Both the position numbers and the translations under genes were made by a program. Below the pieces are notes generated by a model. It ran no database searches, was not told the origin of the DNA, and was given only the letters and a program-made list of their open reading frames with translations. DNA of 60,123 bases, the filler included. It is 4 parts of 4 records of this genome, joined end to end, with 100 filler letters (N's around TTAATTAATTAA, not from the genome) between each part and the next. Parts side by side here need not be neighbours in the genome. Positions count along the whole stretch, not along the records: positions 1 to 12,934 come from DRR723986_9317; positions 13,035 to 24,798 come from DRR723986_9319; positions 24,899 to 54,283 come from DRR723986_9326; 1 more part is not named here. One strand, 5' to 3'. Numbering within the stretch: position 1 is the stretch's first letter; every line of letters starts with the position of its first letter. Shown one piece after another: positions 1 to 48,693 of this stretch.

Positions 1-33
1 AGCCTGATGTCATCAGCAGGCGCTGCAATCTGC
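1..33 (+). repeat. Copy A (5'-truncated by contig start) of dispersed structured repeat
   Basis: 1-30 is the exact reverse complement of 12905-12934; 18-33 (AGGCGCTGCAATCTGC) is identical to the reverse complement of 48633-48648. Confidence 0.85.
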
Positions 34-176
34 AAAATGTTAAGTCGCTCTGCATTGTGAAAAGTGCAAAAAACCGCAGATGGAAAATTGGCCCGCGAGT
101 TAGTTGCTTATGAGAGTGGATATCGATAACTTGTAAATCTGATGTGATTTTTCTCATTGTTTAATATTGAACTATT

Positions 177-578
177 ATGCCGAATATTACTCTGGCCCAA
201 GCCCAAAAGGCGATCGAAAAAGCCCAGGAAAAAGCTGTAGAAACCAAAACGAAAATGAATATTGCAGTCGTAGACGCAGGTGCAAACCTCCTTGCTTTTG
301 TACGTATGGACGGTGCCTGGCTTGGTTCGCTGGATATCTCAATCAAAAAGGCTAAAACTGCACGTTATTTTGATATGCCGACAGGTGCGATTGGTGGACT
401 TTCGCAGCCGGGTGGCGCGCTCTATAATATTGAGCACTCAAATGGCGGACTCATTACGTTTCCGGGTGGATTGCCAATTAAGAACGCCGCTGGTGCCGTG
501 ATCGGTGCAATTGGTGTCTCCGGTGATTCCGTTGAGAATGATCATATCGTTGCAGAAGCCGGAATGCAAGCTATCTAA
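177..578 (+). CDS. GlcG/HbpS family heme-binding protein
   Basis: 133 aa; [41 protein letters not shown] motifs typical of the family. Confidence 0.9.
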
Positions 579-606
579 TTTCAGCTGCCTCCTACAAAAA
601 TTACTT

Positions 607-640
607 TCGCCTGTTTTTCACATTTGTGAAAGGCGGGCGA
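607..640. terminator. Hairpin between convergent genes, probable intrinsic terminator
   Basis: TCGCCTG-TTT-TTCACA-TT-TGTGAA-AGG-CGGGCGA imperfect inverted repeat between the stops of 177..578 (+) and 692..1594 (-). Confidence 0.5.
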
Positions 641-691
641 TTCTGTTTTAAACAAATTGTTGTCACAATTTGCGTGTAGTAAAATTTAACA

Positions 692-1594
692 TCAGCTTTT
701 TGAGTAGACAAATTTGCGCTGCGCAATATTATCCGTGATGCCGGCCAGCAAAAAGTCTGTAAAACGCTCTGCGTAAATGTTGTTTGTGTTGGAGTTAACA
801 AAACTCATGACCGAAGTATTCGGCAGCGGCGGCAGATCAGTTTGCAGCAGCGCCATGTCATCGCGTATAGCTGAAAGCGGCAGCACACTGGCACCGAGCC
901 CCGCGCGAATTGCCGACTGAATCGCCTGAATGGAATTGGCGTCAATGCTGACTTTCCACGAGATATCTGCATCTGTTAAAGCGTCAAAGGCGATTTGGCG
1001 GTAGCTACAGGGCGGATGCAGCAGCACCAGTTCGATTGGATCAGAACTGTTAAGTGCATTGGCATTTGTCCCACTCCAAACGAGCGGTTCCTCCCACAGC
1101 AGGCGACCATTTTCGGCGTCGGGGCCTGCAAAGATCAGGTCGAGTTCACCGCGCTGCATGGCTTCGAACATAAATGGTCCGGTTCCGAGCACCAGGCTCA
1201 GGTCACAGTTGGGATGTGCGCGCCGGAAACGCGCCAGCAAATGATGCAAATGTTGCGGCGCAAGATATTCGGCAAATCCTACGCGCAGGAGCGTCGATTC
1301 GTCGGGCGAAGTCACGGCCAGCAGCGCCTCGTCACCCAATTCAACAATGCGGCGTGCATAACTGACGAATATCTCACCCGCCGCCGTAAGTGCTACAGAA
1401 CGACTTGTGCGATTGAGCAGGCGCGTATGTAAGCGTTCCTCCAGCCGCGCAATTTGCAGGCTGATGGCCGACTGTGAGCGGTTGAGGCGCTTGGCAGCCG
1501 CCGAAAATCCACCGAGTTCAACAACTACGAGCAGCGCGCGCAGGCTCAGCAGGTCGGTGTCAAGTTTGTAGTTTGATCTATTCGATTTGCTCAT
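692..1594 (-). CDS. LysR family transcriptional regulator
   Basis: N-terminal HTH (GFSAAAKRLNRSQSAISLQIARLEERL...RTSRSVALTAAG) plus substrate-binding domain; divergent from 1752..2831. Confidence 0.95.
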   Translation of the reverse strand: MSKSNRSNYKLDTDLLSLRALLVVVELGGFSAAAKRLNRSQSAISLQIARLEERLHTRLLNRTSRSVALTAAGEIFVSYARRIVELGDEALLAVTSPDESTLLRVGFAEYLAPQHLHHLLARFRRAHPNCDLSLVLGTGPFMFEAMQRGELDLIFAGPDAENGRLLWEEPLVWSGTNANALNSSDPIELVLLHPPCSYRQIAFDALTDADISWKVSIDANSIQAIQSAIRAGLGASVLPLSAIRDDMALLQTDLPPLPNTSVMSFVNSNTNNIYAERFTDFLLAGITDNIAQRKFVYSKS

Positions 1595-1751
1595 AGATGC
1601 TATTGATATTTGCGTTGATGCTCATTGATCGTGAATCACTATATTGCAAAGAACACATGAGAAATCCATGAATATTCTTTTGTGTGCACCCGTTTAGCCA
1701 GTCAAATGGCCGGGATTGGATTGCATCTAACCAGGCAAAGGAAATTGAGTA

Positions 1752-2831
1752 ATGCGCAGCACAAATCACCTGAAAATGTTAACATGCCTGGCGGCTGTTT
1801 TTATGCCGCTCCTGGGCTTAAATGCAGTTAACACAATGGCACTGGAGACAGCACTCCTTTGTGAACTCGATCAGCGTCCAGGCAATCCGGCAGTCGGGCC
1901 GGACGGCACCGTCTACTTCAGCATGCATCCCTTTGACAGCCCTGAGTTTAAGATTATGCGCCTGGAAGGCAATATGGCCAAACCCTATCCCAATCCCGAA
2001 ATCTCGCGCAGTTATACGGCAGTCATTGGCATCCAGGCCACGGCCGACGGCACGCTGTGGTGGCTCGATATGGGCAGTCCCGCAGTTTCGCCCAAGCTGG
2101 TCGGCTGGGACACAAAAGCCAACAAGCTTCGCAGTGTGCATGTGATTCCACGCGAAGTCTGCGTCGCCAATTCTTTCCACCAGGACTTTGCGATTGACGA
2201 GCGCCGTAACATGGCCTATATCGCCGATATGTCACGCGGCGGCATGATTGACGCAAGCGAACCTGCGATTGTAGTTATTGACTTAAACACTGGTGATTCG
2301 CGGCGCGTTTTGTCGGGCAACAAAGTTTTCCAGCCGGCAGACACGCCAATTGTTGCCGAGGGCAAAGGCATGCAGTTGCAGGACGAGAATGGCACGATGC
2401 ACGATATTAAACTAGGGCTGAATCCGATCGCAATTGATCCGCAATTTGAATGGGTTTATTTCTCAACGATGACGGCCGGTAAACTCATGCGCGTGTCAAC
2501 TGCGGTGCTGGGTGACTTTGACAAAAGTGACGCACAGATCGAAGACGCAATCGAAGTCTATGCCGACAAACCATCCAGCGACGGCATTGCGGCAGGCAAG
2601 GGCGGGCGTGTTTACATCACGAATGTTGATAAAAGCGCGATCAGCCTGGCCGACGCCAAGGGGACGCGTATCTGGATTCAGGACGCGCGTTTTGTGTGGC
2701 CCGACGGACTGTACGTAGCACCGGACGGCAGCGTGGTAGTGACGATTAATCAGTTAAACCGCGCCGCGCCGTTTAATGGCGGCAAACCCGGAGCTGAGAA
2801 GCCGTTTACAATCTTCAGGATTTCCGAGTAG
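1752..2831 (+). CDS. Major royal jelly / L-dopachrome tautomerase-related (SMP-30-like) beta-propeller protein, exported
   Basis: Signal-peptide-like N-terminus; PGNPAV, LWWLDMG, SFHQDFAIDE..AYIAD, SDGIA, FVWPDG motifs. Confidence 0.85.
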   Translation: MRSTNHLKMLTCLAAVFMPLLGLNAVNTMALETALLCELDQRPGNPAVGPDGTVYFSMHPFDSPEFKIMRLEGNMAKPYPNPEISRSYTAVIGIQATADGTLWWLDMGSPAVSPKLVGWDTKANKLRSVHVIPREVCVANSFHQDFAIDERRNMAYIADMSRGGMIDASEPAIVVIDLNTGDSRRVLSGNKVFQPADTPIVAEGKGMQLQDENGTMHDIKLGLNPIAIDPQFEWVYFSTMTAGKLMRVSTAVLGDFDKSDAQIEDAIEVYADKPSSDGIAAGKGGRVYITNVDKSAISLADAKGTRIWIQDARFVWPDGLYVAPDGSVVVTINQLNRAAPFNGGKPGAEKPFTIFRISE

Positions 2832-2876
2832 AATTATTTCCTTGCGAATCACCAAACATACACACACATAACAGGA

Positions 2877-3890
2877 GTGCCGAATATGAGAGCAATTGGA
2901 TACAAAATCGCCGGGCCAATTGGCGCGCAGGACGCCTTGATCGAAGTCGAACTTGCAACTCCACAACTGGGTGCGCATGACTTACTGGTTGAAGTTCGCG
3001 GGATTTCGGTAAATCCCGCCGATGTTAAAATTCGAGCAATGATGTCCCCGGAAACCGGCGTAAAAGTCATTGGTTATGATGCCGCCGGAGTTGTTAAACA
3101 AATCGGCAGCGCCGTCAGCCGCTATGCGCCTGGAGATGAAGTGTTCTACGCAGGTGATGTGACGCGGCCAGGCACAAATGCGCAGCTGCATGCAGTTGAC
3201 GAGCGCCTTGTCGGACGCAAGCCGGCCTCGCTGGATTTTGCGACGGCGGCGGGCATGCCGCTGACGTCGATTACCGCCTGGGAGCTTCTGTTTGAGTCAC
3301 TGCGTGTGCCCGAGGGCGGCGGCAGTGGCGCGACTTTGCTGATAATTGGTGCGGCCGGCGGTGTTGGTTCGATCATGATCCAGCTGGCAAAAAAGCTAAC
3401 GGGATTAACAGTTGTGGCGACGGCCTCGCGGCCGGAGACGGTGGACTGGGTTAAACAGATGGGCGCAGATCACGTGATTAATCATCGCGAGTCGCTGCCG
3501 GAGCAACTCCAGACTCTTGGTCTTAAACCTGCCTACGTCGCTTCACTGACGGCGACGGCGCAGCATTTTCCAGCGATAGTTGAATTAATCAAACCGCGCG
3601 GTCACATCGCAATAATTGACGACCCGGAGACGCTGGACATCGCAGCCTTAAAGATGAAAGCGCTGACTTTCAGCTGGGAATTTATGTTTACACGTTCGAT
3701 GTTTAAGACTGATGACATGGCGTATCAGGCTGAGTTGTTGAACCGCGTTTCTGCCATGCTTGACGCTGGGGACCTGGTTTCGACTGTACGGCGCAACATG
3801 GGCAGGCTGAGTGTCTCGACACTCACAGAGGCGCATATGTTTCAGGAGAGTGGCCGTGCGATTGGCAAGAATGTGCTTGAGGGGATGTGA
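2877..3890 (+). CDS. Zinc-binding alcohol dehydrogenase family (MDR, quinone oxidoreductase-like) protein
   Basis: [37 protein letters not shown] nucleotide-binding motif, WEFMFTRS; start may be the ATG at 2886. Confidence 0.9.
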
Positions 3891-4012
3891 GGGTAGAGAG
3901 ATAGCTGCTTAACACGATTTGCACTGAACATTCTGACAGAATATTCTGTTGAAGTATTCACAAATTTTAGACTGGTGGCGGTCTGAATGACTTAAGTCTT
4001 GTGGCCCAGTGG

Positions 4013-4066
4013 CAAACAAAAAGCTCAAAAAGCAAGCCTGCTTTGTCAAAACAGGCGCTGCAATCT
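4013..4066 (+). repeat. Copy B of dispersed structured repeat
   Basis: CAAACAAAAAGCTCAAAAAGCAAGCC-tgctttgtcaaaac-AGGCGCTGCAATCT; 5' block 23/26 and 3' block 14/14 identical to copy E. Confidence 0.8.
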
Positions 4067-4188
4067 TCGCGGGCCATCTTCTCACCACCAATTTTGTCAA
4101 CTAACAGCTTCTGCGTAATTTCTGGGACTACTATTTTTTACCGACGTGTGCCGGACGTCCGTACTCTACAATCTAGCTGAGGTCGGTC

Positions 4189-5412
4189 ATGCGAATTCTT
4201 ACCTGTTTAACTGCTCTCTGTCTTGTGTGCAGCCTGTCTGCCTGTGATGATGATACTGCTGCTGATGATTCGCAGAGGCAGTTCAAAATCGGCGCAATGA
4301 TGGCGCTGTCCGGCTCCCTGTCTGATCTGGGCCTGAGTGGCAAGGCGGCGGTTGAGATGGCCCACGATGATATTCTTGCGCGCACGGACCTCGGTATCGT
4401 GATTGCACCCCTGACTATCGAAGATTCACAAACTGATGCTGCCGAGGCCCTGACGTTGATTCAACAAATGCATGCCGATGACATTAATATTGTGATTGGT
4501 CCGCAAAGTAGCTCCGAAGTTGCGGCGGTTAGGGAGTTCGCTGATGCAAATGACATGCTGGTTATCAGTCCTTCGAGTGTGGCGCGCAGTTTAAGTATTG
4601 AAGGTGATAACATCTATCGTTTAGCGCCGGACGACAGCTATCAGGCGGAAGCCATGACCGCCATGATTGTGGAAGACAATCTCGACGCATTAGTCATTCT
4701 TGCACGTGACGACGTCTGGGGTAATGACCTGGCGGGTTTGGTTAACAGCGACTATCTGGCTGCCGGTGGTTTTGTGGCGGCAGAAATTGACTACGATCCA
4801 GCAACGACTGATTTCACAGCACTCATCAGTGAACTGTCTACAGATGTCAGTGATGCGATTGAAAGTTTTGGCGCCGACAAAGTTGGGGTGTATTTGCTGT
4901 CCTTCAGTGAAGGTGAGACAATTTTGACTGAGGCCGCCAAGTCCGAAGTCCTCGGATCTGTTAAGTGGTACGGCTCTTCGGCAGTTGCCCAGAGTTTTAG
5001 TTTGATCAGCAACACAGCCGCCGCTGAATTCGCTCAGAAAACCGGCTATCCCTGTCCGGTTTTTGGTCTTGATGAAGATGCACGTGAGCGCTGGGAAGCA
5101 CTCAGAACACGACTAAAGGCAGAAATTAATCGCGATCCCGATATTTACGCATTGTTAGCTTACGACGCACTGCAAGTGATTGCCGCAACATTTAACGCCA
5201 CGGGCAATCAAAACTTTGCGGATTTTAAGGCTGCATTTGCCGGCACGGCGGCAGCTTATAATGGTGTGACTGGAAATGTTGAGTTAAATGCAGCGGGGGA
5301 CCGTGAGCCCGGCAGTCTGGATTTCTGGTCGATCAGAACGGTCGATGGTGAATCCAGCTGGGTGCGTTCTGCCGTGTATGACACCGAGACTAAAGTCTTA
5401 ACACGACAGTAA
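4189..5412 (+). CDS. Lipoprotein, branched-chain amino acid-type (Peripla_BP_6/LivJ-like) solute-binding protein
   Basis: Lipobox LSAC; KIGAMMALSG, VIGPQSS, ISPSS, IYRLAPDD, YDA, GVTGNVELNAAGDR motifs; no permease or ATPase adjacent. Confidence 0.85.
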   Translation: MRILTCLTALCLVCSLSACDDDTAADDSQRQFKIGAMMALSGSLSDLGLSGKAAVEMAHDDILARTDLGIVIAPLTIEDSQTDAAEALTLIQQMHADDINIVIGPQSSSEVAAVREFADANDMLVISPSSVARSLSIEGDNIYRLAPDDSYQAEAMTAMIVEDNLDALVILARDDVWGNDLAGLVNSDYLAAGGFVAAEIDYDPATTDFTALISELSTDVSDAIESFGADKVGVYLLSFSEGETILTEAAKSEVLGSVKWYGSSAVAQSFSLISNTAAAEFAQKTGYPCPVFGLDEDARERWEALRTRLKAEINRDPDIYALLAYDALQVIAATFNATGNQNFADFKAAFAGTAAAYNGVTGNVELNAAGDREPGSLDFWSIRTVDGESSWVRSAVYDTETKVLTRQ

Positions 5413-5425
5413 AAATCAAAACAGC

Positions 5426-5474
5426 GGCCGCCGTCCTGCTGAATGTCACTAAACATTCAACAGTTGCGGCGGCC
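5426..5474. terminator. Long imperfect hairpin between convergent genes
   Basis: GGCCGCCG..CTG.TGAATGT / ACATTCA.CAG...CGGCGGCC; a second hairpin (CAACAGC/GCTGTTG) follows. Confidence 0.45.
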
Positions 5475-5587
5475 ACTTGCTCGTTTGGGGGCCAACAGCC
5501 GGCAGTCGCTGTTGTAACGAGTTGTAGCTGCATGATGGACTGATTTGTTTGATTTTTTGCAGCTGGGGCAGTAATGTTAAACGCCCA

Positions 5588-8500
5588 TTATTTGTGAATC
5601 ACGAGTGGAAAAACACCCAGTGAGTTGCCCTGGTTGTTAACCTGCACCAGGTATGTGCCGCTTTGCAACTGCTCCTGTTGGACGTTGATATGCGCTGTGC
5701 CGCTTCCAAATGATTGAGTCAAATGTAACAACTCACGCCCCAGGAGATCAGTGATGTGAACATCCAGTGTCGCGGGCTGGGCAAGTTCACATTCAATGTT
5801 AAACACACCTGAATTTGGATTGGGGTAAATCCAGACACTACCTTGGCCTGACGTACGCACATTGGCGTCTGCGTCGGAACTACCGAAGTCATTAGCCAGG
5901 CCCGGTTTAAGGTACGAATCGGCCTGGCAGCTATAGATGCTGGTGCTAAGCTGACTGCCGTCACCAATTTGTCCCCAGGTATTGAAGCCAACGCCGCAAA
6001 CAGTACCTCCGGCCTTGTATACAAGTGAATGATGCCATGTTTCGGCTAGCTTGGTGACTCCGGAAAGTGTGCCAACCTGAATGGGAATAGTCCGCAACAT
6101 CAGCGTGCCGTCGCCCAACTGCCCGTATAGATTGTTGCCAAAGGCGAATACATTGCCGTCCACGTCCAGTGCGTAGCTGTGGCTCGAGCCGCCTGCAATA
6201 CCGACAATGTCTGTTAAGCCTTGTGCCGTGACAGGAATTGTGCTGGCCAGCTGTGTTCCGTTGCCCAGCTGGCCAAAGCTGTTAAGTCCCCAGGTGCGCA
6301 CCGTGCCGTCTGCCAGGAGTGCCATGCTGTGGTTTGCGCCGGCCGCAATTGCTATGGCGTTGTTAATGCCCAATACGGTGACAGGAGCGTTCCTTTGCTG
6401 TACCGAACCATCGCCCAGCTGTCCGTTGTTGTTGCGTCCCCAGGCCTGAATGGTCCCATCACTGCGCAGCGCCAGCGTGTGATACTGACCGGCAGCAACG
6501 GCAACCACATCGCTGATCGTAACGTTAACCGGTGTGTATTGAGTGGCCGTCCCCCCGTTTCCGAGGTTGCCAAACCCTCCATAACCCCAGGTGCGTACGT
6601 TGCCATCTTCCAGCACTGCCGCACAGTGATACATTCCAGCTGCAATGCCAATCGCATTCGAGATTCCTGCAACCGGAAATGGTGTATTTAGATGCACGGT
6701 GGCACCATTGCCGTGTTGACCAAAAACACCATTGCCCCAGGAGAATATTGTTCCATCGCTGCGCAGTGCCAGGCTGTTGAATGCGCCGGTAGCCACCGAG
6801 GTGATATCGACAAGACCGTTGGTCTGTACTGGTGTGACTGAGTTTGCCCAACTGCCGTTTCCAAGTTGACCGCTACTATTGTGGCCCCAGGCCCAGACCG
6901 TGCCGTCATCGACTTTAAGTGCCAGGCTGTGATTGACGCCACCCGAAATTGGTCGTTCACTGCTTGCGATTGCCAGAGCCATACCGCAGGTGAATGTTGA
7001 TTTATCCGCGAGCGTGCCGTCGCCAAGTTGACCATTGGTATTGCGACCCACAAAACAAATTCCGCCGTCCGCATTTACAAGGAGAGTATGGTCAGCACTT
7101 ACGCAGATATCGCGGGCTTGTGGTACGGCTACAAACTGTGGAGTTGAGAAAACTCCGGTCGTAACTCCATTGCCCAGGCGTCCATTGGCGGCGCTGCCCC
7201 AGCTAAGTACGCTGCCGTCAAGGAGTATGGCGTGACTGTGGGAGCGCCCGGCCGCAACCTTGCGTGCGTTGTTGATTCCAGTGGCAAATACAGGAACATT
7301 GCTGTTGCCTTGACCGCCATTTCCCAGCTGGCCACTGCCGTTGCTGCCCCAACTTATGACGCGCCCATCATCAAGAATCGCCAGCGCGTGCATGGCCCCG
7401 GCATCTATAGCGTCTGCCGTAAATCCGCCGGAAACGATCACAGGTGAAGTGCTCATAGCAAAAGTCCCGTTGCCCAGTTCGCCGCTATTATTGCGGCCCC
7501 AGGTGTAGATTATTCCATCCTCGTTCAAAGCCATGCTAAAGAATTCACCGGCGGCAATCGCAACAATGTTTTGCAGGCCGGGAACTGGGAAGGGAATTGC
7601 GCGATGTGTTTGTGAGCCGTCACCCAGTTCGCCGAAGGTGTTGCGCCCCCAGGCCAGGACGGTGCCATTGTTAAGTAGCGCCAGGCTGTGTTCACGCCCG
7701 CAGGCGATAGCATTGACGTTAACAAGGCCGTTTACAGGCTGTGGTGGATAAATATTGCCAAACAATCCAATTCCCAGCTGGCCAAATGGATTCGAGCCCC
7801 AGGATATTACGGTGCCGTTTTCCAGCAGAGCCAGATTGTGCCAATAGCCGGCGGCAACGCTTGCGACGTCGTTAAGCCCCAGGACTCTCCGAGGGAGAGC
7901 TTCATCTACGCCAGATCCGTCGCCCAGCTGCCCCTGGAAGTTATCACCCCAGGCCCATACCGTGCCATTGTTCGTCTGCAGCGCCAGGCTGTGATCCATT
8001 CCCGTAGCGATGACATTATTGAGCTGGGAGAAGTCAAAACTGCGGAATAGCAGGTTGTTGCCGGGCCTGTCGTCGCCAGGATTTATCACTTCCAGGAAAA
8101 CATTGTGATTGGCCTTGCGAAACGCAATCGCCTCTGCAAACCCGAGACGAAAAGTCTCGCCGGCTGCGATATAGGCAATCGTACGTGTTTCGTTATAGAC
8201 CTCAACCTCACGCACACGGTCAACAATACGCAGGTTAACATCTACATTATTTTGCTGCATTGTTCCATTATTGCGAATCAATGCCAATGGCGCGATTGGC
8301 GAGCCGATTTGACTTCCAGGTTCAGGCAGTAGAATCTCATAGGCTTCCAGTTCATTGCCGAAACCCACGTGGAAGACACTGCTGCTCTCATCGAATGTCG
8401 AAGAATTCGTGAAGTCGCTGATGCGCACGCGCCCATGTGTGGCCCGGATCGCCGGAATCGTCCAGGTAAAAGTGCCTGACGCCGCTGGAGTTCGACTAAT

Positions 8501-10546: not shown

Positions 10547-10762
10547 ACGGACCTCCCAATAATGATGTTTGGTACTGAAGCGCATAGCCAAATCGTAGGG
10601 GCTCAAATCTGAATTCGGCATCTGCTTTGTGTGTGTCGTTTTCGGTCGGTGCAGAATAGTGTGGCAGGCTTGCGCCAAAATGGTTCCGATCGAATCAACT
10701 ACGCCGAAAACATAACATTAAACCAGGTGTAAAGCAGCACTTCACAAATACTACAGGAGCTC

Positions 10763-10790
10763 CTAAGTAATTGAAAATTATGGGTTTATG
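10763..10790 (-). promoter_or_regulatory. 28-bp motif shared with 27562-27589 (IHF-consensus-like core)
   Basis: Minus strand CATAAACCCATAATTTTCAATTACTTAG, 20/28 identical to 27562-27589, same orientation between regulator and T9SS cargo. Confidence 0.45.
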
Positions 10791-10995
10791 TGTATGCGTT
10801 TTCGTGGTGCGCTATCGTGGGAATGTCAGGCAATCGGGCATGGCATTTGTTCATCCACTCTTGCGACGTCAATCAGAGTTTAGTCCCTTGCATACAAGTG
10901 TCTGCCCAAAATATTCCAGGTAATATGATGTTGGAGTGTGTGGAAAGCAGCGGAATGAAACTATAGGACCTGTTCTAACCCAGATACTGCAGAAG

Positions 10996-12732: not shown

Positions 12733-12904
12733 GGCCTGCCACTTTAAAATGTTTAACACCAAGTTCGGGCAAAACTTGTGCTGTTGAGTGCATTCTAGCG
12801 ACCCATTAATTTGTGGATCGTCTCAGTTTGAGTCAATAATCTACATTCCTGGTGGCTGGAAGTTCGTATAAAAAACAAGGTGTCAATAGGTTAGGGAAGT
12901 CCAG

Positions 12905-12934
12905 GATTGCAGCGCCTGCTGATGACATCAGGCT
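12905..12934 (-). repeat. Copy C (truncated by contig end) of dispersed structured repeat
   Basis: Exact 30-nt inverted copy of 1-30. Confidence 0.85.
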
Positions 12935-13034
12935 NNNNNNNNNNNNNNNNNNNNNNNNNNNNNNNNNNNNNNNNNNNNTTAATTAATTAANNNNNNNNNN
13001 NNNNNNNNNNNNNNNNNNNNNNNNNNNNNNNNNN
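12935..13034. other. Artificial contig spacer
   Basis: 44 N + TTAATTAATTAA (stops in all frames) + 44 N. Confidence 0.99.
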
Positions 13035-13035
13035 G

Positions 13036-13185
13036 CTGGAAGAGATCAACGAAGAGATCAAGGAAAGCTTTGAAGAGGCGGGCGGCGAACACTTCACCTA
13101 TATTCCCTGTCTCAATGATGATGACGCGCATATCGACGCGCTGACCAACACCATTGCAGATAACCTGCGCGGTTGGCTGGACTGA
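13036..13185 (+). CDS. hemH: Ferrochelatase, C-terminal end (5'-truncated)
   Basis: Own translation: LEEINEEIKESFEEAGGEHFTYIPCLNDDDAHIDAL...RGWLD*, the HemH C-terminal signature. Confidence 0.88.
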   Translation: MEEINEEIKESFEEAGGEHFTYIPCLNDDDAHIDALTNTIADNLRGWLD

Positions 13186-13220
13186 GCGTTTTCGCGGGCA
13201 GAAATCTACCCTTCAAACAC

Positions 13221-13251
13221 AAAAAAGGCGGTACCGAGGTACCGCCTTTTT
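13221..13251. terminator. Bidirectional intrinsic terminator
   Basis: AAAAAAGGCGGTACC-GA-GGTACCGCCTTTTT between convergent genes. Confidence 0.85.
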
Positions 13252-13272
13252 CGTTTTGGTAGTCGATACCGA

Positions 13273-13455
13273 TTAGTCGGCAGCAACAGCCGCAGCAACG
13301 ATTGCCAGCAGGATCAGCGGCAGCAGGATGCCGGAAGAAGAGCCAGCGGCTTCTTCAACAACAACAGGTGCTTCGATGACCGGGTCTGCAAGCGAACCAG
13401 CGTATGCGGTCGATGCGGCAGCTGTCAGTGCAGCGGCGAGAACGAGTTTTTTCAT
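13273..13455 (-). CDS. Small exported/membrane hypothetical protein (Roseobacter-type)
   Basis: MKKLVLAAALTAAASTAYAG signal peptide, hydrophobic C-terminus, GGAGG RBS before ATG 13455. Confidence 0.8.
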   Translation of the reverse strand: MKKLVLAAALTAAASTAYAGSLADPVIEAPVVVEEAAGSSSGILLPLILLAIVAAAVAAD

Positions 13456-24797: not shown

Positions 24798-24798
24798 T

Positions 24799-35853: not shown

Positions 35854-36127
35854 CGACCTGCGCAACTTAACATTCTGAATCCAAGGGCCGGCTATTGGCC
35901 TTAACAAAACGACACTCAATCTCTAATGGTTCTGAACTCAGACCATCCCTGCATCGAAAGCTACCAGCCACCGATTAATATAGGCCAATAGAACAGTGGC
36001 GATTTCAAGCTGACCTGCGATTTATGTATTTTGCAGGCAATCAAGAGTGCCAGAAAATCCAGCATTACAGCCAATAATGCAATCAAGTCTGTTTGAGGTC
36101 AGATTTAACTTATTGAGAACTTCTCAT

Positions 36128-38878: not shown

Positions 38879-39159
38879 CTGCAACACAGCTTTTAAGAAT
38901 GAGAAAAGCAGGCGAATGTCCGCTAATGATTCAGTTGTTTAATTTGCTTACTCCCGCTCGCAAAAGCATTTTTCTTGAGCTTCTTGTTAGTCAATTAACT
39001 TGAAGTCACGAGGCTCGGTGATGGGCGGGAGCCCAGGTAGTGTTGTTTAATGTTCGAGACTTACATAAATGTGACCTGCAGTTTCAAACCTCTAATTCCG
39101 CAGAGATTGGCGAATCAGTTTAGCATACCAGTTTAGCAAATCAAGGTTCCGTTCAGACT

Positions 39160-40008
39160 CTATCGGTCTACCTCACAATCAACATAGTTACTATCGCGTG
39201 ACTCAGATACCATTACCCCTGCCTGGTAGCGGTTATGCGTACGTATGTACAAACAACGCGGTTCGGAATACTCGCCCGAATCTGCGTCTGCAAGATTTGA
39301 ATCTACTAGCTCAATCAATTCGGCTTGCATCTGGTAACTCAATTGCCGGCGCCCATCGGCTACTTCAAATTTTCTGTGAATGACAACGTGCCCATAGTCG
39401 TTCGTTTCTTGTGTAAATAGTAATTGTGCTTCTCCATCTCTGAATTGATAAGTCGTCTGCCTGCCGGAGCCGTAAAATCCGTTCGTATAGAATGTCAGCA
39501 ACTGTGCAGCTGAATCGATTCGTGGCGGATTGGAATTATAACTCAATTCCAGCGAATAGTTATATACGTCGTGCTCTGGTTCATAGAGCCAGATATGCGC
39601 CGCGGCATTATCGAGAGATCCCCAGCCATCTGCCATCCAGAGCAAATCATCATATCCATCAAAATTAAGGTCATACACCTCCAGGCAGCCGAGTAAGTTT
39701 TGCTCTTCCAGCTCAACTTCAGAATCAAGTGAGGCCTGATAAACCCAGGGTAAACCATCACCCGTGACTGTAATGTTTATGAAGGAATAGTCTGAGAGCT
39801 GGGTCGAATCGACCTGGCAAACCTGTCCCGTCGTGACTGAATTGCCCGCCTGCATGGGATTGCGGTCCACTGCAAGTCTATATTCATACAGACTTTCCAC
39901 CTCCAGCTCAGCACTTTTCAGAGCGGGACGGGACGGCAGTGCGCACAGCCCAAAGACTGAGAAACTCAAGACAACAAAGACTATCATTCGACTCTGCGAG
40001 TTAAACAT
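39160..40008 (-). CDS. Exported XAC2610-like protein
   Basis: Signal peptide; YDLNFDGYDDL Ca-binding-like loop followed by IWLYEP...YNYSLELS and IDSAAQLLT. Confidence 0.6.
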   Translation of the reverse strand: MFNSQSRMIVFVVLSFSVFGLCALPSRPALKSAELEVESLYEYRLAVDRNPMQAGNSVTTGQVCQVDSTQLSDYSFINITVTGDGLPWVYQASLDSEVELEEQNLLGCLEVYDLNFDGYDDLLWMADGWGSLDNAAAHIWLYEPEHDVYNYSLELSYNSNPPRIDSAAQLLTFYTNGFYGSGRQTTYQFRDGEAQLLFTQETNDYGHVVIHRKFEVADGRRQLSYQMQAELIELVDSNLADADSGEYSEPRCLYIRTHNRYQAGVMVSESRDSNYVDCEVDR

Positions 40009-40076: not shown

Positions 40077-41003
40077 TCACCAGCTGTCCGTTACCAAGGT
40101 CGTGTCGTCTTGTACAAGTGTTAACACAGAGTCGATTCGTTTAAAAACCCGGTGGATATGCAGGCAGCTGTCGGGGTTATCAGAATTGTCTCCCGGCATA
40201 TTTTCGTACAGCTTTAGTTCGCGATGCACGAGAATATCTTTTGTGCCTGCAGGCGCAAAACGTTCATACTCCGAACTGCGGTCATAATCGGAACTCGCCG
40301 AGTACGATACCTGCCTAAAGCGATGCATTTCCGCTGACCATTCATAACTTGTACTTGATGAGGCCGCACCGCGCGGATGCCACCAATTAAACACCACGAC
40401 ATCTTCCTGTAGCGGTAGTTGTAAATGGTTAAAATTGCGCTCGCCTGCGAACTGCGGAATGTATTGATACGAATTTGATCCGCGCCGGTACATCCAGGCC
40501 GACGCAAAGGTGCAGCTGTACTTGTCGCGGCAGTTTTCCTCAAAGATCAGGTCTTTGTAACCGTCGCCATTAAGATCGCTAATGTGCAGGCGCCAATCCT
40601 GCGTAAAATCGACGTACATAAACTGCCCTGCGACGGACGTATCGAGCACTAGATTGGTTTCGTCGCTTATCAATTCAAAGCCGGCATTATTGTGTATTGC
40701 CAGGCACCAGCCATATTCCTCTGAATTCTTAGCGCCTTTTGCCTGCGGGTCGTACAAGATTTCAAGAATGCAAGCTGTTATCTCCTCGTCATTAACTCCT
40801 TCGTAGCGCGATTTTAGATCGAAGGTATCCCGGAAAACAACAATCACTGAGTCGATGGCGGAATCGACGGACAGATCGATTCCGGAATGAAGCGGTGGGT
40901 ACTCATCGGCCTGCGCAGACGACGCAGAGTACAGCGAAGCAGCAATTAGAGACACAACAACGAGAGCCGCGCATGTAGCAACATAAACCTTGTACCAGAT
41001 CAT
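40077..41003 (-). CDS. Exported XAC2610-like protein (paralog)
   Basis: Signal peptide; ISDLNGDGYKDL...AWMYRRGSNSYQYIPQF; C-terminal CLHI matches CLYI of the neighbour. Confidence 0.55.
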   Translation of the reverse strand: MIWYKVYVATCAALVVVSLIAASLYSASSAQADEYPPLHSGIDLSVDSAIDSVIVVFRDTFDLKSRYEGVNDEEITACILEILYDPQAKGAKNSEEYGWCLAIHNNAGFELISDETNLVLDTSVAGQFMYVDFTQDWRLHISDLNGDGYKDLIFEENCRDKYSCTFASAWMYRRGSNSYQYIPQFAGERNFNHLQLPLQEDVVVFNWWHPRGAASSSTSYEWSAEMHRFRQVSYSASSDYDRSSEYERFAPAGTKDILVHRELKLYENMPGDNSDNPDSCLHIHRVFKRIDSVLTLVQDDTTLVTDSW

Positions 41004-41375
41004 CGCCCAACCTTTTGTTGATCAACAGCAAAATACTCGAGGTCCCGCAGTCTGGCAGCTACAGACACGGAGACAAACAAGATACTCAAGAAAAAAACTA
41101 TTGCGAGCGGGAGTGAGCAGATTCGCGTAGTTGTGATTTTCGACGCAGTAACTGGCATGCGGCCAATAATCTGTGAGTGTGCACAACAATGCATAGAATT
41201 AAACAGACTTATTTTGTAACGCGGGTATGGAATGAAGTGTTTTTTGCATGCTCGAAAGCGGAATTGCAATTTTCCCGTGCAACTCATCCAAATGAATTTG
41301 TTATCGGTGCCCAACTCTCCCTATTTTACCGGTACAAATTGCTCTCCACAAATATGTAATTTCTGGAAAACGATC

Positions 41376-43901
41376 ATGAAGTCCAGCTATAAATACACCT
41401 TGTTAGTTTACGGCCTGTCAACTATTGGCATTTTGTGGGCAAGTAATTTGACCTTTGCACAGGACTGGTACACTCCGGTTCAAATGCAAGCAGGCCGCTC
41501 GGCACATAGCTCCGTCCTCATGAATGACGGAAGGGTTTTGATTACTGGTGGCGGACCGGATCGCGAAACCGGACTGGCATTGGCCGAAGTTTTCGACTTT
41601 AGATACAATACGATAGAACAAGTCGCCGACATGCATGAACGGCGCATATTACACTCGTCGGTGGTTCTGGATGACGGTCGTGTGCTGGTAGCTGGGGGAA
41701 CACCTGCGGTAGGCAGTTCACTAAACAGCTGTGAAATTTTTGATCCCGCAACGGACACGTGGCACTTAACCGGTGACATGAATTTTGGGCGGAATGGTTT
41801 TGCGATGGTGAAACTTAAGGATGGGCGTGTAATGGCACTTGGCGGCATTGGGCATGCAAGTCCGCAAGAAGAATACAGCACCACGGAGCGCTGTGAAATT
41901 TTCGACCCTGTGACGGAAACGTGGACTGAAACCGCGCCGATGCCGAATGACCGCAATGGGCTTGCGGCTATGGTGTTGGATGACGGCAGAGTTTATGCTA
42001 CGAGTGGTTACGCTTCACGTGGACCTACCCGCCCAGACTGCCAGATCTATAACCCGGCAAGCGATAGCTGGGATGCGGTGAAGTGGTTCCCCGATAGCGG
42101 AACCGGAGACCACAAGATGACGAAGCTGCCCAACGGCGAACTGCTGCGCACGGGCGGTTGGCCGGGGCCACAGACTTACAGTCACCTGTATAATCCACAA
42201 AACGATTCCTGGCGGCAGGCGAGTGTACTTAATACATCACGGCACTCACATGTGCAACTTACGATGCCGGATGGCCGCACCTATGTTCTTGGTGGAATGA
42301 CCAGCGAAAGACGTGGCCCGCAGGAACCGACTGATGACGTTGAATTTTTTGATATGGAATGGGTTACCTGGCATTCAGTTGAGCCCCTGCCCGAAAAGGT
42401 GGCCAATCTAACGGGTCACATTCTGCCGAACGGACAACTGATAATTATTGGCGGCGCAGTCTCATTCACGGCAGCCAGCCGCAATATTCACGTTTCAAAT
42501 TTTGATGATGTTTCGAGTGCAAGGCGCGTGAGCGGAACGGTCTGGTATGACATTGACGGCAACGGCATTTTAGACGATCAGGACCGCCCAGCCGAAAAGG
42601 TGAAACTGGAAGGCCTCAAGGGATCATTTGCGAGTCCCTTCACGCACTTCAGTGATGTCAATGGAGACTATGAACTTATTCTCCCACTCGGGAAACATCA
42701 GATCTGTGTCGCTGATCAGCTCCATTGGGAAGTAGTCGCACTGGATAATAACGCGCAGTGTTATACGGAAGACATCCAGGATGTGGGCCTTGAATTAAGC
42801 GATCGGAATTTTGTCTTAACTCCGCGGCATGCTATCCAGGATTTGGACATGAGCATTGTCAGCAGCCAGCCACGTCCGGGTTTTGCCTTACACTACTACA
42901 TAAACATTCGCAATACCGGGACGCTGCCGTTTAGCGGTCAAATCTTGTTTGAAGCCGATCCAATTCTGAAATTTGTTAGCAGCAGCTGGCCTGGAGATAT
43001 GATGCAAGGTTCGCTGCTGGCCTGGAATGCAGACGATCTTCCGGTTGGAGCTGAACATCGCATTGTGCTAGAGTATAGCGTTCCAGCCGACGTTGGGTTA
43101 CTGGGTTATGAATTGTGCGCCGCAATCCGAACGGACAAGGACAATCGCGACGAACTCCTGCGTGAAGGCCATGACATCTTCTGCAGTGAAATTCGCGGCG
43201 CTTACGACCCCAATGAGATAGTTGTCTCACCACGCGGAATTGGAGATAAGGGCGCGGTGAACTATGACGACACATTCCTCTCTTATACTATTTACTTCCA
43301 GAACCTGGGGACTGGAACTGCGTTTAACGTGAGAATCCTCAACCAGCTTGACAGGTACCTGGAAAGCGGCAGTTTCCAGCTGGGGAATTCGAGCCACCCG
43401 GTAGATGTTGCGATCGATTCTGAGGGGCTGGTGAAATTTACATTTGACGATATCAGGCTGCCGCACAAGGCAGTCAATGAGCCAGGCAGCCAGGGTTTTG
43501 TACGTTATTATGTCAAAGCCAAAAAACCGCTTGGCAAAGAAAACCTGGTGCACAATCTTGCAGATATCTATTTTGACTTTAACCCTCCAATTCGCACAAA
43601 CACGGCCCGCACAACAGTTGTTAACTTAACAACTTCGGTAGACTCCAAACAGCCACCGGCAGCAGACGTACGCTTGTTTCCCAATCCAGCCGGTGAGCAC
43701 GTCACTCTTAAAATTAGCATGGGTGAATTCGAGCACATCTCGCTGGTTGATGTTCTGGGGCAGGAACAGACTCCAAACCTTGAGTTTAGCGGGCAGGAAA
43801 TCTCTCTCGACGTCTCAGCGCTGCAGCAAGGCGTGTATTGGCTGACGGTAGTTGACAAGGCCGGCATGCGGCATACGCAAACCTTAACGATTCGCCGCTG
43901 A
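41376..43901 (+). CDS. T9SS-secreted Kelch-repeat protein with SdrD-B-like and DUF11/DUF7619-like domains
   Basis: Kelch repeats (R..HS...L.DGRVL..GG...E.FDP.T.TW); VSGTVWYDIDGNG; GAYDPN, YTIYFQNLGT, ADIYFDFNPPIRTN; LFPNP...VDVLG...LQQGVY CTD; start set to ATG 41376. Confidence 0.9.
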   Translation: MKSSYKYTLLVYGLSTIGILWASNLTFAQDWYTPVQMQAGRSAHSSVLMNDGRVLITGGGPDRETGLALAEVFDFRYNTIEQVADMHERRILHSSVVLDDGRVLVAGGTPAVGSSLNSCEIFDPATDTWHLTGDMNFGRNGFAMVKLKDGRVMALGGIGHASPQEEYSTTERCEIFDPVTETWTETAPMPNDRNGLAAMVLDDGRVYATSGYASRGPTRPDCQIYNPASDSWDAVKWFPDSGTGDHKMTKLPNGELLRTGGWPGPQTYSHLYNPQNDSWRQASVLNTSRHSHVQLTMPDGRTYVLGGMTSERRGPQEPTDDVEFFDMEWVTWHSVEPLPEKVANLTGHILPNGQLIIIGGAVSFTAASRNIHVSNFDDVSSARRVSGTVWYDIDGNGILDDQDRPAEKVKLEGLKGSFASPFTHFSDVNGDYELILPLGKHQICVADQLHWEVVALDNNAQCYTEDIQDVGLELSDRNFVLTPRHAIQDLDMSIVSSQPRPGFALHYYINIRNTGTLPFSGQILFEADPILKFVSSSWPGDMMQGSLLAWNADDLPVGAEHRIVLEYSVPADVGLLGYELCAAIRTDKDNRDELLREGHDIFCSEIRGAYDPNEIVVSPRGIGDKGAVNYDDTFLSYTIYFQNLGTGTAFNVRILNQLDRYLESGSFQLGNSSHPVDVAIDSEGLVKFTFDDIRLPHKAVNEPGSQGFVRYYVKAKKPLGKENLVHNLADIYFDFNPPIRTNTARTTVVNLTTSVDSKQPPAADVRLFPNPAGEHVTLKISMGEFEHISLVDVLGQEQTPNLEFSGQEISLDVSALQQGVYWLTVVDKAGMRHTQTLTIRR

Positions 43902-45763: not shown

Positions 45764-46858
45764 ATGCGTAGGCGCTGGGTTTCGAGAGGCCGACCCTACC
45801 CTGTTTTTAGCAAACGCGTGTGCGAGCGCTTTTGCACATTTTTGATATTCGGATTCACTATGAGCCCAATTGTTACCGCGGCCTGCCTGCTACACAGTCA
45901 GTTCCGTCTTAAGCGCTGCGCCCCATTACATGTGGCTGGCTTTGTCTTCTTGTTAGTCCTTGCTGCCACAGCCTTTACGGCAGTGATCCCTCAGTCTTGT
46001 CCTGCGCAAGACGCTCAGTCTACATTCAAAATTGACGTAATCGACGATCTGGCCTACTATGCCGGTGACGACGCCGATCCTGATAAGCACAAGCTCGATC
46101 TCTATCTGCCCGCCGGCCTGGAGGACGCTCCCGTCATCCTCTGGATTCATGGTGGCGCATGGGCAACCGGCAGCCGCAAACAGGAGAGCCTGATAGCCAA
46201 ACAGTTCGCCGCACGCGGAATCGCCGTCGCCGTCATGAGTTACAGATTAAGTCCCGGCAACTGGATGAGCCCGGACCTGCCCGAAACAGGTGTAGTCCAT
46301 CCGGCACATATTAACGACGTGGCACGCGCATTTGCATGGCTGCATGCACAGGCCGATGAATATCCCTGGTCAGCGCAAAAACTGTTTGTGAGCGGCTACT
46401 CCGCCGGCGGGCACCTGTCAGCATTGCTCGGATCGGACCCGCAGTACCTGGCAGCCCTTGGATTAACAATTGAAAATATTCGTGGCGCAATCCCAATCGC
46501 TGGAGCCTATGACATTGTTAAGTACTACGAAGCGCTGCTCGAAGCCATGGGCCAGAAAAATACCGAAGCACATATATTTGGAGTCTTTGGCCCCGAAGAG
46601 GGCCTGCCGGCCGCCTCACCAACAAGTTATGTTGCGCAGTCCAACGCCCCCATGCTCGTAATCTCAGAGAAACAAACCTTCAGTTATACAGCTGTCTACG
46701 AAGAACTGGTGATAAACGCAGAGATAGACCACATTCAATTTGTGCACTACATGGACAAGACGCACAAAACCCTCTATGAAAACATGCAGACTGACGACAG
46801 CCGCGCCAATCGACGCATCGTCGAGTTTGTGCAGAGCCGCTGTGCAGACCTGCCCTAA
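45764..46858 (+). CDS. Exported alpha/beta hydrolase (carboxylesterase/BD-FAE-like)
   Basis: KLDLYLP, WIHGGAW oxyanion motif, GYSAGGHL nucleophile elbow; true start probably downstream (e.g. ATG 45860). Confidence 0.85.
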   Translation: MRRRWVSRGRPYPVFSKRVCERFCTFLIFGFTMSPIVTAACLLHSQFRLKRCAPLHVAGFVFLLVLAATAFTAVIPQSCPAQDAQSTFKIDVIDDLAYYAGDDADPDKHKLDLYLPAGLEDAPVILWIHGGAWATGSRKQESLIAKQFAARGIAVAVMSYRLSPGNWMSPDLPETGVVHPAHINDVARAFAWLHAQADEYPWSAQKLFVSGYSAGGHLSALLGSDPQYLAALGLTIENIRGAIPIAGAYDIVKYYEALLEAMGQKNTEAHIFGVFGPEEGLPAASPTSYVAQSNAPMLVISEKQTFSYTAVYEELVINAEIDHIQFVHYMDKTHKTLYENMQTDDSRANRRIVEFVQSRCADLP

Positions 46859-46914
46859 GAACGCGCCGCACCTCCAGGCCCTGAGCATCAATGCCAAAAA
46901 CTCAGCACAAAAAT

Positions 46915-46948
46915 GCCCGTGACTGTAGATTAATCTACGGCCACGGGC
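46915..46948. terminator. Hairpin between convergent genes
   Basis: GCCCGTGACTGTAGA-TTAA-TCTACGGCCACGGGC. Confidence 0.65.
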
Positions 46949-46976
46949 TGTTGGCAGTCTCGCTTGTTTAAGTCAT

Positions 46977-47817
46977 TCAGGGACTGCAGATTTCAGCTAG
47001 CCTGCCAATCGTGTTAAGCCTCAACCGAACCGATGTGTTCTGAAAATTAATGACATCCATCCGCGGCACCACCAAACGCAAAGGCACAGGTGAGATGTCA
47101 ACTGCGTCGGCCACCAAAGCCAGTTCACAACCAGCTCCACCAATGTTGCCGGAATGCCCCAGAGCACTTAACTCAAGCGAATACTGATCACCGGCATCAA
47201 ATAGGTCCGTACGCCCTGCGGCATTGTAGGGCGTCAGCAGACTCTGGGTACATGTCAAAGAGTTAAGACTATTGTGCGCCGCAGCATCACCATAGACATA
47301 ACTAAAGCTGGAAATTGGGCCGCCGCCACCGGCAGGGACTTCCATCCCCCAGCCTATTCCCATTGGAAAACTGCCGGAGTTTGTCTGCCCAACCAGAACC
47401 ATCTCACCATTGGGAGACAAACTGGGCTTTTGAATTACGTCAAAACCCGTATTCCAGGCCTGAGGTGAAGGTCCACCTAAGTCATAACGCGTGGCCCAGG
47501 CCGTGCCAAAGTTTTCATCGAAATTAACCAGTACCACGTCACGTTTAACCGCAGAAAAGCTGTAGCTTTCACCGATAACCGCAACCCGCCGGTTGGCAGT
47601 CCCGCCACCATTGTAGGTATACGTTTGCAAACCAAATGCACGGTCATTCTTGGCTCCACCATAATTACGCGCGCCCAGAATCGTCGGATTATTCGCATCT
47701 GGATCAACCTTGACTATCCACATGTCATAATCCCTGTCGGCCGGTGTCAAGCTGGGAGCACTACTTGTTAACTGTTGATACACCACCACAATGTCATATA
47801 TGCTGAAAACTTTTCAT
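46977..47817 (-). pseudogene. Disrupted beta-propeller surface protein remnant
   Basis: GGAG RBS + ATG at 47817 reads MKSFQHI* and is out of frame with the 270-codon ORF, which carries propeller repeats (DYDMWIVKVD, NYGGAKNDRA, IGESYSF) but no signal peptide or CTD. Confidence 0.55.
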
Positions 47818-47879
47818 GATATATAACTCCGAATCCAGATTATTCTATTTTGTTTAAGTGTTCTGATACAAACCGATTG

Positions 47880-48632
47880 TTAGTCGATAATCAACAGTGA
47901 CTGGCGGTGAAGTGTATCACCATCGCCGATACTCACGCTATATGCACCTGCAGCCAAGTCTTCCGTTGAAATCGAAAGCTCGCTAACATCGCCAAACTCT
48001 GCGCCGGAATAGCTTATAGTTAAGCTTCCGCGCACATCGTGAACATTAATGATCACAGCAGCAGAAAGCGGCCGCTGAAGCATTACTTTAACATCGCTAC
48101 CAGAGCGCACGGGATTTGGCGAAATATACATCATGGCTGACTCAACATTGACAGATGACGAGTTGGGGTCTACCCGGACGTCATCTGCAACATCTGTCGG
48201 AGTCACCATCATCGAAGTATTACCTTCACAGACTCTTTCGATATCTCCATGCGTTTCAATCAGGAAGTCAGGTGCAGGCGCCTGCGCAATCGGAACATTG
48301 TAGGCCACAAAATCACGTGTGACCGCACCGGCTACAGCTGTAGGCGATATGAGTTCAGGGCAAGGCTGATGTATTAAATTGTTAAGTCCGGTCCCCAGCA
48401 TGGAAATTGCGCGCGCCGGCCACTGATCACCACCGCCGGCGCCGGCCGAGATCGTCGTTCCACCAAAGTGCAGGCCCGCCTCGGGAGTATTGGCTTGTGT
48501 AACAGCGATGGCGCGATACGTGTCATAACCCGACCAACCGTGTTAAACACGCCCACTCAACCAGTCCACACGCGCGCACAGTCAGACTTGTAGATCCACT
48601 CGCAAATGGATACATTAACAATCCACCGGTCA
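47880..48632 (-). pseudogene. 5'-truncated T9SS cargo remnant (CTD intact)
   Basis: C-terminal ISPNP...VHDVRG...LAAGAYSV CTD; frame extends upstream of Met 48401 (GYDTYRAIAVTQ...GGDQW) to an in-frame TAA; no signal peptide; abuts repeat copy E. Confidence 0.6.
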
Positions 48633-48693
48633 GCAGATTGCAGCGCCTCCCGCCATTGCATTTGGGTGGCTTGCCTTTTGATATTTTTGTTTG
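48633..48693 (-). repeat. Copy E of dispersed structured repeat
   Basis: Minus strand CAAACAAAAATATCAAAAGGCAAGCC-acccaaatgcaatggcggg-AGGCGCTGCAATCTGC. Confidence 0.8.

Follow-up and report, generated by a model that had tools for sequence, protein, structure and literature searches.

The stretch of DNA analysed here (60,123 bases; hereafter the window) consists of four contigs, at positions 1-12934, 13035-24798, 24899-54283 and 54384-60123, separated by artificial spacers at 12935-13034, 24799-24898 and 54284-54383, each a run of N around TTAATTAATTAA. It carries at least eight copies of a short dispersed element of about 60-75 nt, which combines an A-rich arm, a hairpin and a tail. In the window the copies are confined to contigs 1 and 3 (GC content 0.51 and 0.49), and none was found on contigs 2 and 4 (both 0.57). 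The element family is real and apparently undescribed, being absent from Rfam and from the literature searched. A preliminary description of the window reported five of these loci and read them on the strand on which the arm comes first; this arm-first strand is the one given for the copies listed below.

The arm reads (ACCCGCC)GACAAACAAAA..(G)TCA.AAAGC(G/A)AGCC, the base of the hairpin (GCR.GCC / GGC..UGC) is conserved while its top varies by locus in sequence and length, and the tail of the element is GGCGCTGCAATCAGG. About 45 nt of flank sequence are conserved across the family. In subtype 1 the arm is followed by a centre of 5-28 nt and then by GGCGCTGCAATCAGG; in subtype 2 the order is ...GAAAAAGCAAGCC, centre, GGCGAAGCGCTCAGG, and copies D and F of the window resemble this form. 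In more distant variants, among them G and H, it is mainly the arm GAC(A/T)AACAA(A/G)A that is retained. Of the flanks described earlier as fixed, the first A of AGGCGC is not conserved. The copies in the window, with cmsearch scores from a covariance model built from 25 copies, are as follows.

1..33, + strand: copy A, subtype 1, the 3' two-thirds of the unit (AGCC, centre CTGATGTCATCAG, AGGCGCTGCAATC); the contig start removes the 5' arm

4004..4068, + strand: copy B, complete subtype 1 (60.7 bits, E 4e-12)

12902..12934, - strand: copy C, the same 30-mer as in A, inverted; truncated by the end of contig 1

24919..24985, + strand: copy D1, subtype-2-like (ACTAACAAAAAGAAAAAGCCAGCC, 32-nt centre, GGGCGCAGCGAC), at the start of contig 3

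24976..25034, + strand: copy D2, second unit of the doublet, without the distal A-rich arm (45 bits, E 1.4e-8)

38941..38992, - strand: copy G, a divergent relative with the arm GACTAACAAGAAGCTCAAGAAAAA (9.7 bits, E 1.4)

41065..41123, + strand: copy H, divergent, the inverted partner of G (15.3 bits, E 0.077)

45908..45968, - strand: copy F, subtype-2-like, as D (31.1 bits, E 2e-5)

48633..48702, - strand: copy E, complete subtype 1 (56.8 bits)

The 13-mer AGGCGCWGCRATC, with one mismatch allowed, has five matches in the window against a shuffle mean of 0.53, and five were reached in none of 100 shuffles. All five loci of the preliminary description carry the reported motif at the reported positions; copies F, G and H were absent from it. 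Copies B and E have a common 5' module, CAAACAAAAA..TCAAAA.GCAAGCC (26 nt at 88%), and A and C are two copies with one centre, the first 30 nt of A being identical to the reverse complement of C. Locus D is indeed a doublet, as had been described, but its second unit lacks the distal arm, and D is assigned, like F, to the second subtype. The covariance model scores only the 5' arm of D1 (24911-24948, 7.8 bits, E 3.9), and the rest of that unit was read directly.

The next same-strand start codon lies 147 nt from A, 124 nt from B, 143 nt from C and 164 nt from D, in agreement with the spacing of about 120-175 nt noted earlier; the location of A, C and D at contig ends is likewise correct. For copies A-E, F and H, a start codon on the same strand follows at a distance of 109-420 nt, and H lies 109 nt upstream of the gene 41232-43901. 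Copy E had been placed against a truncated gene; the neighbouring ORF (47880-48401, with a weak Por_Secre_tail match) is complete, encodes 173 aa and lies 235 nt downstream. Copy G is situated 63 nt past the stop of the + strand gene 36047-38878 and has the orientation of a terminator for it. The reverse complement of copy F falls within the N-terminal, signal-peptide-like part of the ORF 45764-46858 (+), a BD-FAE esterase according to Pfam, where the encoded stretch reads ...RLKRCAPLHVAGFVFLLVLAATAFTAV...; the true start codon of this ORF is uncertain.

Genome-wide statements on the family rest on two related genomes, G001 and G002, both metagenome-assembled genomes (MAGs), and not on the genome of the window itself. 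A pattern scan of one genome per species returned 120 loci, nearly all of them chance matches in GC-rich genomes; the two loci judged to be true, L006 and L010, carry the full element and both come from one public MAG (G001). The exact 13-mer has 11 matches in G001, of which 6 are clear copies, and 11 in G002, all of them copies. It was rejected as a copy counter: since the A preceding GGCGC varies, it recovers only about 6-11 copies per genome. Six 13-mer matches in another genome (G004) were judged not to be copies of the element, and a scan of metagenome contigs gave a single match, GC-rich and without the A-rich arm, which was judged to be due to chance.

With the covariance model at E<=0.1, at least 148 matches were obtained in G001 and at least 146 in G002, from 150 scored candidates per genome, which bears out the expectation of many more copies genome-wide. 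In 400 kb of G001 chosen regardless of matches there are 17, about one per 24 kb, and the copy number in these two genomes is roughly 150-250 each. Of 61 relatives searched, 2 match, namely G001 and G002 themselves, and the other 59 are without a match. The best match of one window protein in G001/G002 shows 54% identity, a value which for this single ortholog suggests that the window organism is a fairly distant relative of the two, yet its copies fit the same consensus.

No Rfam family matched the window at the gathering score, and at E<=1 eleven related loci gave a single chance miRNA match and nothing else, consistent with the earlier statement that no known family could be recognised. A literature search with 11-12-nt core motifs, which did not extend to supplementary files, returned only unrelated primer matches. 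Likeness to sigma-54 promoters, integration host factor (IHF) sites, boxA/nut and the Bacteroidetes -33/-7 promoter, judged by eye against their consensus sequences, was rejected, as either the spacing or the letters did not fit.

The conserved base of the hairpin is folded by RNAalifold with GC(R) pairing to UGC and GCC pairing to GGC around an asymmetric internal loop in which A lies opposite GC. In a 112-copy alignment, which was fitted to the structure of the model and whose copies are mutually related, 98.4% of base-stem cells are paired versus 16-78% with the partner slid. Both partners are altered in three of the six base-stem pairs (G-C to A-U; C-G to U-A or G-C), and two-sided changes occur in 15 cells versus 0.9 in shuffles, 15 being reached in none of 500 shuffles. 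As the centres are unalignable, each copy was folded with its own centre and compared with 200 shuffled centres; the real centre is more stable in 89% of 115 copies (90 distinct centres), with a mean z of -1.19 and -11.4 kcal/mol compared with -9.2 kcal/mol for shuffled centres. The base stem covaries and the centres fold better than shuffled ones, in support of the structured element that had been proposed. The swappable base-pairing centre of the preliminary description stands as a family-wide tendency, and within the window it is clear in B (z -1.86), modest in E (z -1.30) and absent in D2 (z -0.14) and F (z about 0).

The position of the copies relative to genes was examined in the relatives, with genes called heuristically as the longest ORFs passing a filter on third-codon-position GC content (GC3), so that neighbour counts are approximate. 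The sample of 112 copies is biased to top scores and holds about 35 orthologous pairs, and its counts are therefore not independent. Clean intergenic neighbours are present for 84 of the 112, with 29 copies in convergent, 7 in divergent and 48 in tandem gaps; in 30 of the tandem gaps the genes run with the arm-first strand, and in 18 they run opposite to it, the copy then being oriented to terminate the upstream gene. The baseline in 400 kb is 171 tandem, 42 convergent and 45 divergent gaps, and relative to baseline gaps of >=60 nt the convergent ones are about twofold over-represented and the divergent ones about 2.6-fold under-represented among the copies. In the unselected 400 kb, 8 of the 17 copies lie in convergent gaps, and an opposite-strand gene end is found on the 3' side in 11 of the 17, within 220 nt in 10 of these. 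Of 105 copies, 38 point with their 3' side to a gene start and 38 to an opposite-strand gene end (<=150 nt), while 29 are ambiguous. The claim that the element always points into the next gene fails in the relatives; in the window, G is an exception to it.

Where a gene end lies on the 3' side, the distance to it is commonly 5-100 nt, and about half of the copies sit behind a stop codon. The genes ending 8-208 nt from the element include some that are real according to Pfam, encoding a cargo protein of the type IX secretion system (T9SS), a dioxygenase and a YcaO protein. Most copies are solitary. Where copies are neighbours, nine pairs are head-to-head, one is tail-to-tail and one is direct, some of these pairs being orthologous to each other; the spacers of the inverted pairs are 100-549 nt long and mutually unrelated. 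Between convergent genes, each member of an inverted pair is oriented to end its own gene.

The opposite strand of the element reads CCTGATTGCAGCGCC, hairpin, GGCTCGCTTT.TGA..TTTTGTTTGTC, that is, a GC-rich hairpin with a T-rich tail; as RNA, it is CCUGAUUGCAGCGCC, hairpin, GGCUCGCUUU.UGA..UUUUGUUUGUC. On this strand the 8 nt next to the stem contain 4.3-4.6 T, and T makes up about 60% of the tail. The arm-first strand has no U-rich tract, the tail there being AATCAGG. Copy B shows the arrangement on the - strand (hairpin from 4056-4036 plus tail, then TTGCTTTTTG) and copy E on the + strand (hairpin from 48652-48670 plus tail, then TTGCCTTTTG), and both were flagged by a scan for terminator-like sites. 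The working strand is most likely the opposite of the one on which the preliminary description was based.

For approximately 35 of 48 copies in G001, G002 also carries a copy at the orthologous position. When the partners of four copies seemed to be missing and were sought, those of L213, L238 and L245 proved to be present and that of L178 to lie at G002 contig ends; no empty orthologous site was found for the four candidate copies queried against the other genome. Across 28 orthologous G001/G002 pairs, identity amounts to 90% within the element, compared with 69% in the adjoining 50 nt upstream and 66% downstream (Wilcoxon p ~1e-8). The copy-specific centres are 91% identical between orthologs (385/421 positions) versus 46% between paralogs, although top-score selection or gene conversion could inflate the identity of both element and centre. 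In three comparisons (L128/L149, L123/L157 and L245/G001:C64), homology resumes at the element or about 30 nt before it, with the 5' side differing. The one indel examined consists of two additional genes (4.9 kb) that G001 carries on the 5' side, with no second copy of the element at the other junction, and the simplest reading assigns the element to the gene behind whose end it lies.

With about even confidence, the family is interpreted here as a repeat resembling repetitive extragenic palindromes (REPs) and bacterial interspersed mosaic elements (BIMEs), which would serve mainly as a terminator, a 3'-end hairpin or an insulator. Copies that follow a stop codon at a distance of a few to about 100 nt would act as intrinsic terminators or as protective 3'-end hairpins, and with a head-to-head pair both of two convergent genes would be closed off. 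The remaining copies, in co-directional gaps, within operons or in front of genes, may act as a hairpin or as an insulator against antisense or read-in transcription, or may have no effect. Such a distribution is familiar from REPs and BIMEs.

Known roles of REPs and BIMEs include mRNA stabilisation, termination and the binding of gyrase and IHF. The element resembles them in being a short extragenic hairpin present in hundreds of copies, in either orientation and mostly behind genes or within operons, with inverted pairs frequent and with lineage-specific, vertical inheritance. However, it is asymmetric, with a 25-30 nt A-rich arm; no 5' tetranucleotide of the GTAG type, a feature of REPs, is visible in the element alignment; the top of the hairpin differs by copy, while REP copies are near-identical; and its consensus is common to organisms whose proteins are 54% identical, as far as one ortholog indicates. 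The likeness to an intrinsic terminator lies in the GC-rich hairpin of the opposite strand, followed directly by UUU.U and a long U-rich tail, in the location of about half of the copies past stop codons, and in the enrichment in convergent gaps, where pairs would serve both genes. Terminators share only a shape, whereas the element conserves the sequence of its flanks. Repeat-derived terminators have a precedent in Neisseria, in the form of Correia elements and of inverted pairs of DNA uptake sequences.

Several observations weigh against a pure terminator. In 30 of the 48 tandem gaps the copy is wrongly oriented to terminate the upstream gene, for seven of the eight copies in the window the relevant strand offers no gene to terminate, and one copy of the relatives lies inside a nuo operon, before the chain-6 gene. 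The hairpin, at about -11 kcal/mol, is moderately stable and interrupted by the internal loop; compared with dinucleotide shuffles, the whole core gains little (median z -0.5 to -0.7). The scan for terminator-like sites found overall no more sites than in shuffles, in spite of flagging B and E. The hairpin is only slightly more stable in copies that follow a gene end (-11.2 vs -9.3 kcal/mol for the rest, p 0.05), and the T-tails of these copies are no better. Finally, a generic terminator needs no conserved flank, and conservation across deep divergence goes beyond what termination alone would demand.

This last point could be met by a sequence-specific partner that keeps the flanks constant. 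In a bolder version of the terminator interpretation, which we consider decidedly unlikely as it stands, the conserved flanks and the internal loop would dock a lineage-specific protein binding RNA or single-stranded DNA, and the copies would make up a punctuation system of about 200 sites per genome. Such a system might act by factor-assisted termination, insulation or 3'-end protection, with the locus-specific stem tops selected to tune individual sites. It would explain why a 65-nt sequence has remained near-constant at a protein identity of 54% (one ortholog), and why the private centres are conserved at 91% when the adjoining 50 nt are at 66-69%.

It seems unlikely, though clearly conceivable, that the family is instead a purely selfish, non-autonomous element of the REPIN or MITE (miniature inverted-repeat transposable element) kind, without a host function and tolerated mainly behind genes, where an insertion would be least harmful, in which the head-to-head pairs are the transposing unit. 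The high copy number in a single lineage, the existence of subtypes, the dominance of inverted over direct pairs (9 head-to-head vs 1 direct), the depletion of divergent, promoter-bearing gaps, the contig breaks at copies and the few copies in N-terminal coding regions (F; L215, L242 and L244) would all suit such an element. REPINs are described as two inverted REPs with a spacer, replicated by a REP-associated tyrosine transposase (RAYT) and inherited vertically over long times (PMC3337134, PMC3116915, bioRxiv 10.1101/2022.05.22.493013). The REPIN spacer is short and closes one long hairpin, unlike the long and unrelated spacers of the pairs observed here. Searches for the Y1/RAYT transposase (PF01797) found it in neither G001 nor G002, compared with 6 of 14 known genomes in a control search, a result that, for MAGs, falls short of proving absence. 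No direct repeat indicative of a target-site duplication was seen by inspection in the outer flanks of the nine head-to-head pairs, and no terminal inverted repeats of the single unit in the 112-row alignment; the suggestion that the element is the end of a MITE or of an insertion sequence (IS) is thus not upheld. The orthologous placement of about 35 of 48 copies, without an empty site among the candidates queried, also argues against a purely selfish element, and neutral DNA would not remain so far above its flanks in conservation, centres included, barring gene conversion or biased sampling.

It is distinctly improbable that the element is a DNA site, double-stranded or folded from a single strand, for a dedicated protein, whether attC-like, a nucleoid or gyrase site as in BIMEs, or some other punctuation signal, with the flanks and the asymmetric internal loop as recognition surface and the variable top irrelevant. 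Nearly invariant flanks with a free top, the persistence of the consensus at 54% protein identity (one ortholog), the asymmetric loop at the stem base with A opposite GC, and the three orthologous comparisons in which homology sets in again at the element or some 30 nt ahead of it are all in keeping with such a site. The likeness to attC, also put forward earlier, extends to an imperfect hairpin in which the sequence at the stem base is conserved, a spacer close to it is unpaired, and the centre retains its pairing while varying in length and sequence. However, the element ends in GACAAAC...AAAGCRAGCC and GGCGCTGCAATCAGG, and neither the RYYYAAC (5') nor the GTTRRRY (3') box was seen by eye in the 112-row alignment. 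Its copies are dispersed over many contigs in both orientations, unlike a one-directional cassette array, and no cassette-like arrays beside an integrase were seen, though integrases were not searched for. A protein-recognised site is further disfavoured by the centres, whose conservation between orthologs means that the top is not free at a given locus, and by the 4.9-kb, two-gene indel without a second copy at its other junction.

A cis-regulatory RNA in the arm-first orientation, lying in the 5' leader of the downstream gene and carrying a variable pairing centre, is very improbable and has been largely refuted by orientation and gene content. The five loci of the preliminary description, as well as F and H, do precede a same-strand start codon by 109-420 nt; the element and its 3' flank are conserved with the downstream gene at L128/L149 and in the paralogs L180/L181/L212, and the hairpin covaries. 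The equal split between gene starts and gene ends, together with the unrelated nature of the genes, removes the main argument for a leader RNA, and in the unselected sample gene ends even prevail (11 of 17). The downstream genes encode proteins as diverse as an HbpS-like protein, a solute-binding protein, TPR-LuxR regulators, an ECF sigma factor, PQQ/BamB-like and RHS proteins, a TetR regulator, nuoJ/NADH dehydrogenase chain 6, a peptidase M3 and a T9SS cargo protein. The distance to the start codon ranges from 12 to >900 nt, and there is no match in Rfam.

It is hardly credible that the element is a coding remnant or module, with a reverse strand that encodes an N-terminus of the signal-peptide type (K/R-rich at first, F/L/V-rich after that) and with non-coding copies that represent decayed gene starts. 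The stretch encoded by the reverse complement of F does precede the BD-FAE esterase domain, long reverse-strand ORFs pass through the element close to their N-terminus in L215, L242 and L244, as in F, and the length modulo 3 is uneven (55, 28, 28). However, only about 4-6 of 129 copies are in plausible genes: 37 have a reverse-strand ORF of >=80 aa extending past the tail, most of which look like arginine-rich junk. Many copies begin 5-60 nt past the stop of another gene, with an in-frame stop present, the arm-first strand has no conserved reading frame or ORF, centres of 5-28 nt shift the frame between the conserved flanks, the modulo-3 skew tracks subfamily size, and the T-rich tail gives F/L/V in two of three frames regardless of origin. 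The copies within genes are read as occasional capture of this tail, which translates as F/L/V, rather than as the origin of the family. Rickettsia palindromic elements (RPEs) are repeats that also sit in frame inside genes. The minority of putatively translated copies in N-terminal coding parts recalls them, whereas most copies of the element are intergenic and there is no sequence similarity to RPEs.

For annotation, the family is of practical interest: the repeats mark gene ends and break short-read assemblies in an uncultured T9SS-rich lineage, and a covariance model for the element would improve the prediction of transcription units and explain contig breaks. REP-like repeats are usually young, near-identical and linked to a RAYT. 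In the present family, the lack of a RAYT in the two genomes searched, the stable orthologous sites, the conservation above that of the flanks and the deep sharing suggest a candidate functional repeat kept by its host, a point long argued for REP elements. A binding factor, should one exist, would add a new component to the control of transcript ends; a family of purely selfish or structural DNA would make the finding an ordinary one. The interest stems from the fact that not only the flanks but also the private centres of the copies are conserved.

Contig 1 has an identical 30-mer at both ends (1-30 and 12905-12934) in inverted orientation, as expected from a k=31 graph assembly of a 12.9-kb segment lying between two inverted copies. 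The contig breaks at A and C look like breaks at a repeated k-mer, and the 12.9-kb contig may be an invertible segment between these two copies. Copies G and H, which are 85% complementary over 52 nt, enclose about 2 kb with two - strand ORFs (39160-40008 and 40077-41003) that belong to no Pfam family. Contigs 2 and 4, element-free and with 57% GC, may stem from another region of the genome or from another organism of the bin.

Two further repeat families, 150-300 nt in length, occur in G001 and G002, either 60-400 nt away from copies, on their 5' side, or in the space between the members of head-to-head pairs. Block 1 was found at L153, L154, L155, L156 and L123, and block 2 at L122, L140, L145 and L149. 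Both contain ..TTGATCA..GGGGCCC.., a C-rich run and ..AAAAAACTGAACG with repeated TGAACG, and on the reverse strand they encode a short Gly-rich peptide (GGGG.G..GP(L/I)D). They were rejected as a part of the element, none being present in the window. At L178, positions 1920-1970 hold a second, unrelated short repeat with at least eight matches across G002 contigs; G002 contig ends adjoin both this repeat and the element.

Large secreted proteins with a T9SS C-terminal sorting domain are numerous in the window (5588-10678, 27924-33932, 41232-43901, 53244-53903 and 47880-48401), and the domains accompanying it include RCC1 plus reprolysin, FG-GAP, Kelch and DUF7619. This cargo set points to an organism among the T9SS-bearing bacteria, probably resembling the Fibrobacteres-Chlorobi-Bacteroidetes (FCB) group. 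Protein-atlas matches were a mixture of Bacteroidota and Pseudomonadota and gave no guide to taxonomy. Between copy E and a 1077-aa gene at 49910 lies a 1.2-kb AT-rich span (48700-49900) without a convincing ORF, an unusual length for the gene-dense contig 3. At 34796-34870, a 12-nt tandem repeat resembling GGAGCAACCCAG, in five overlapping copies, is located at the 3' end of the ORF 34389-34868.

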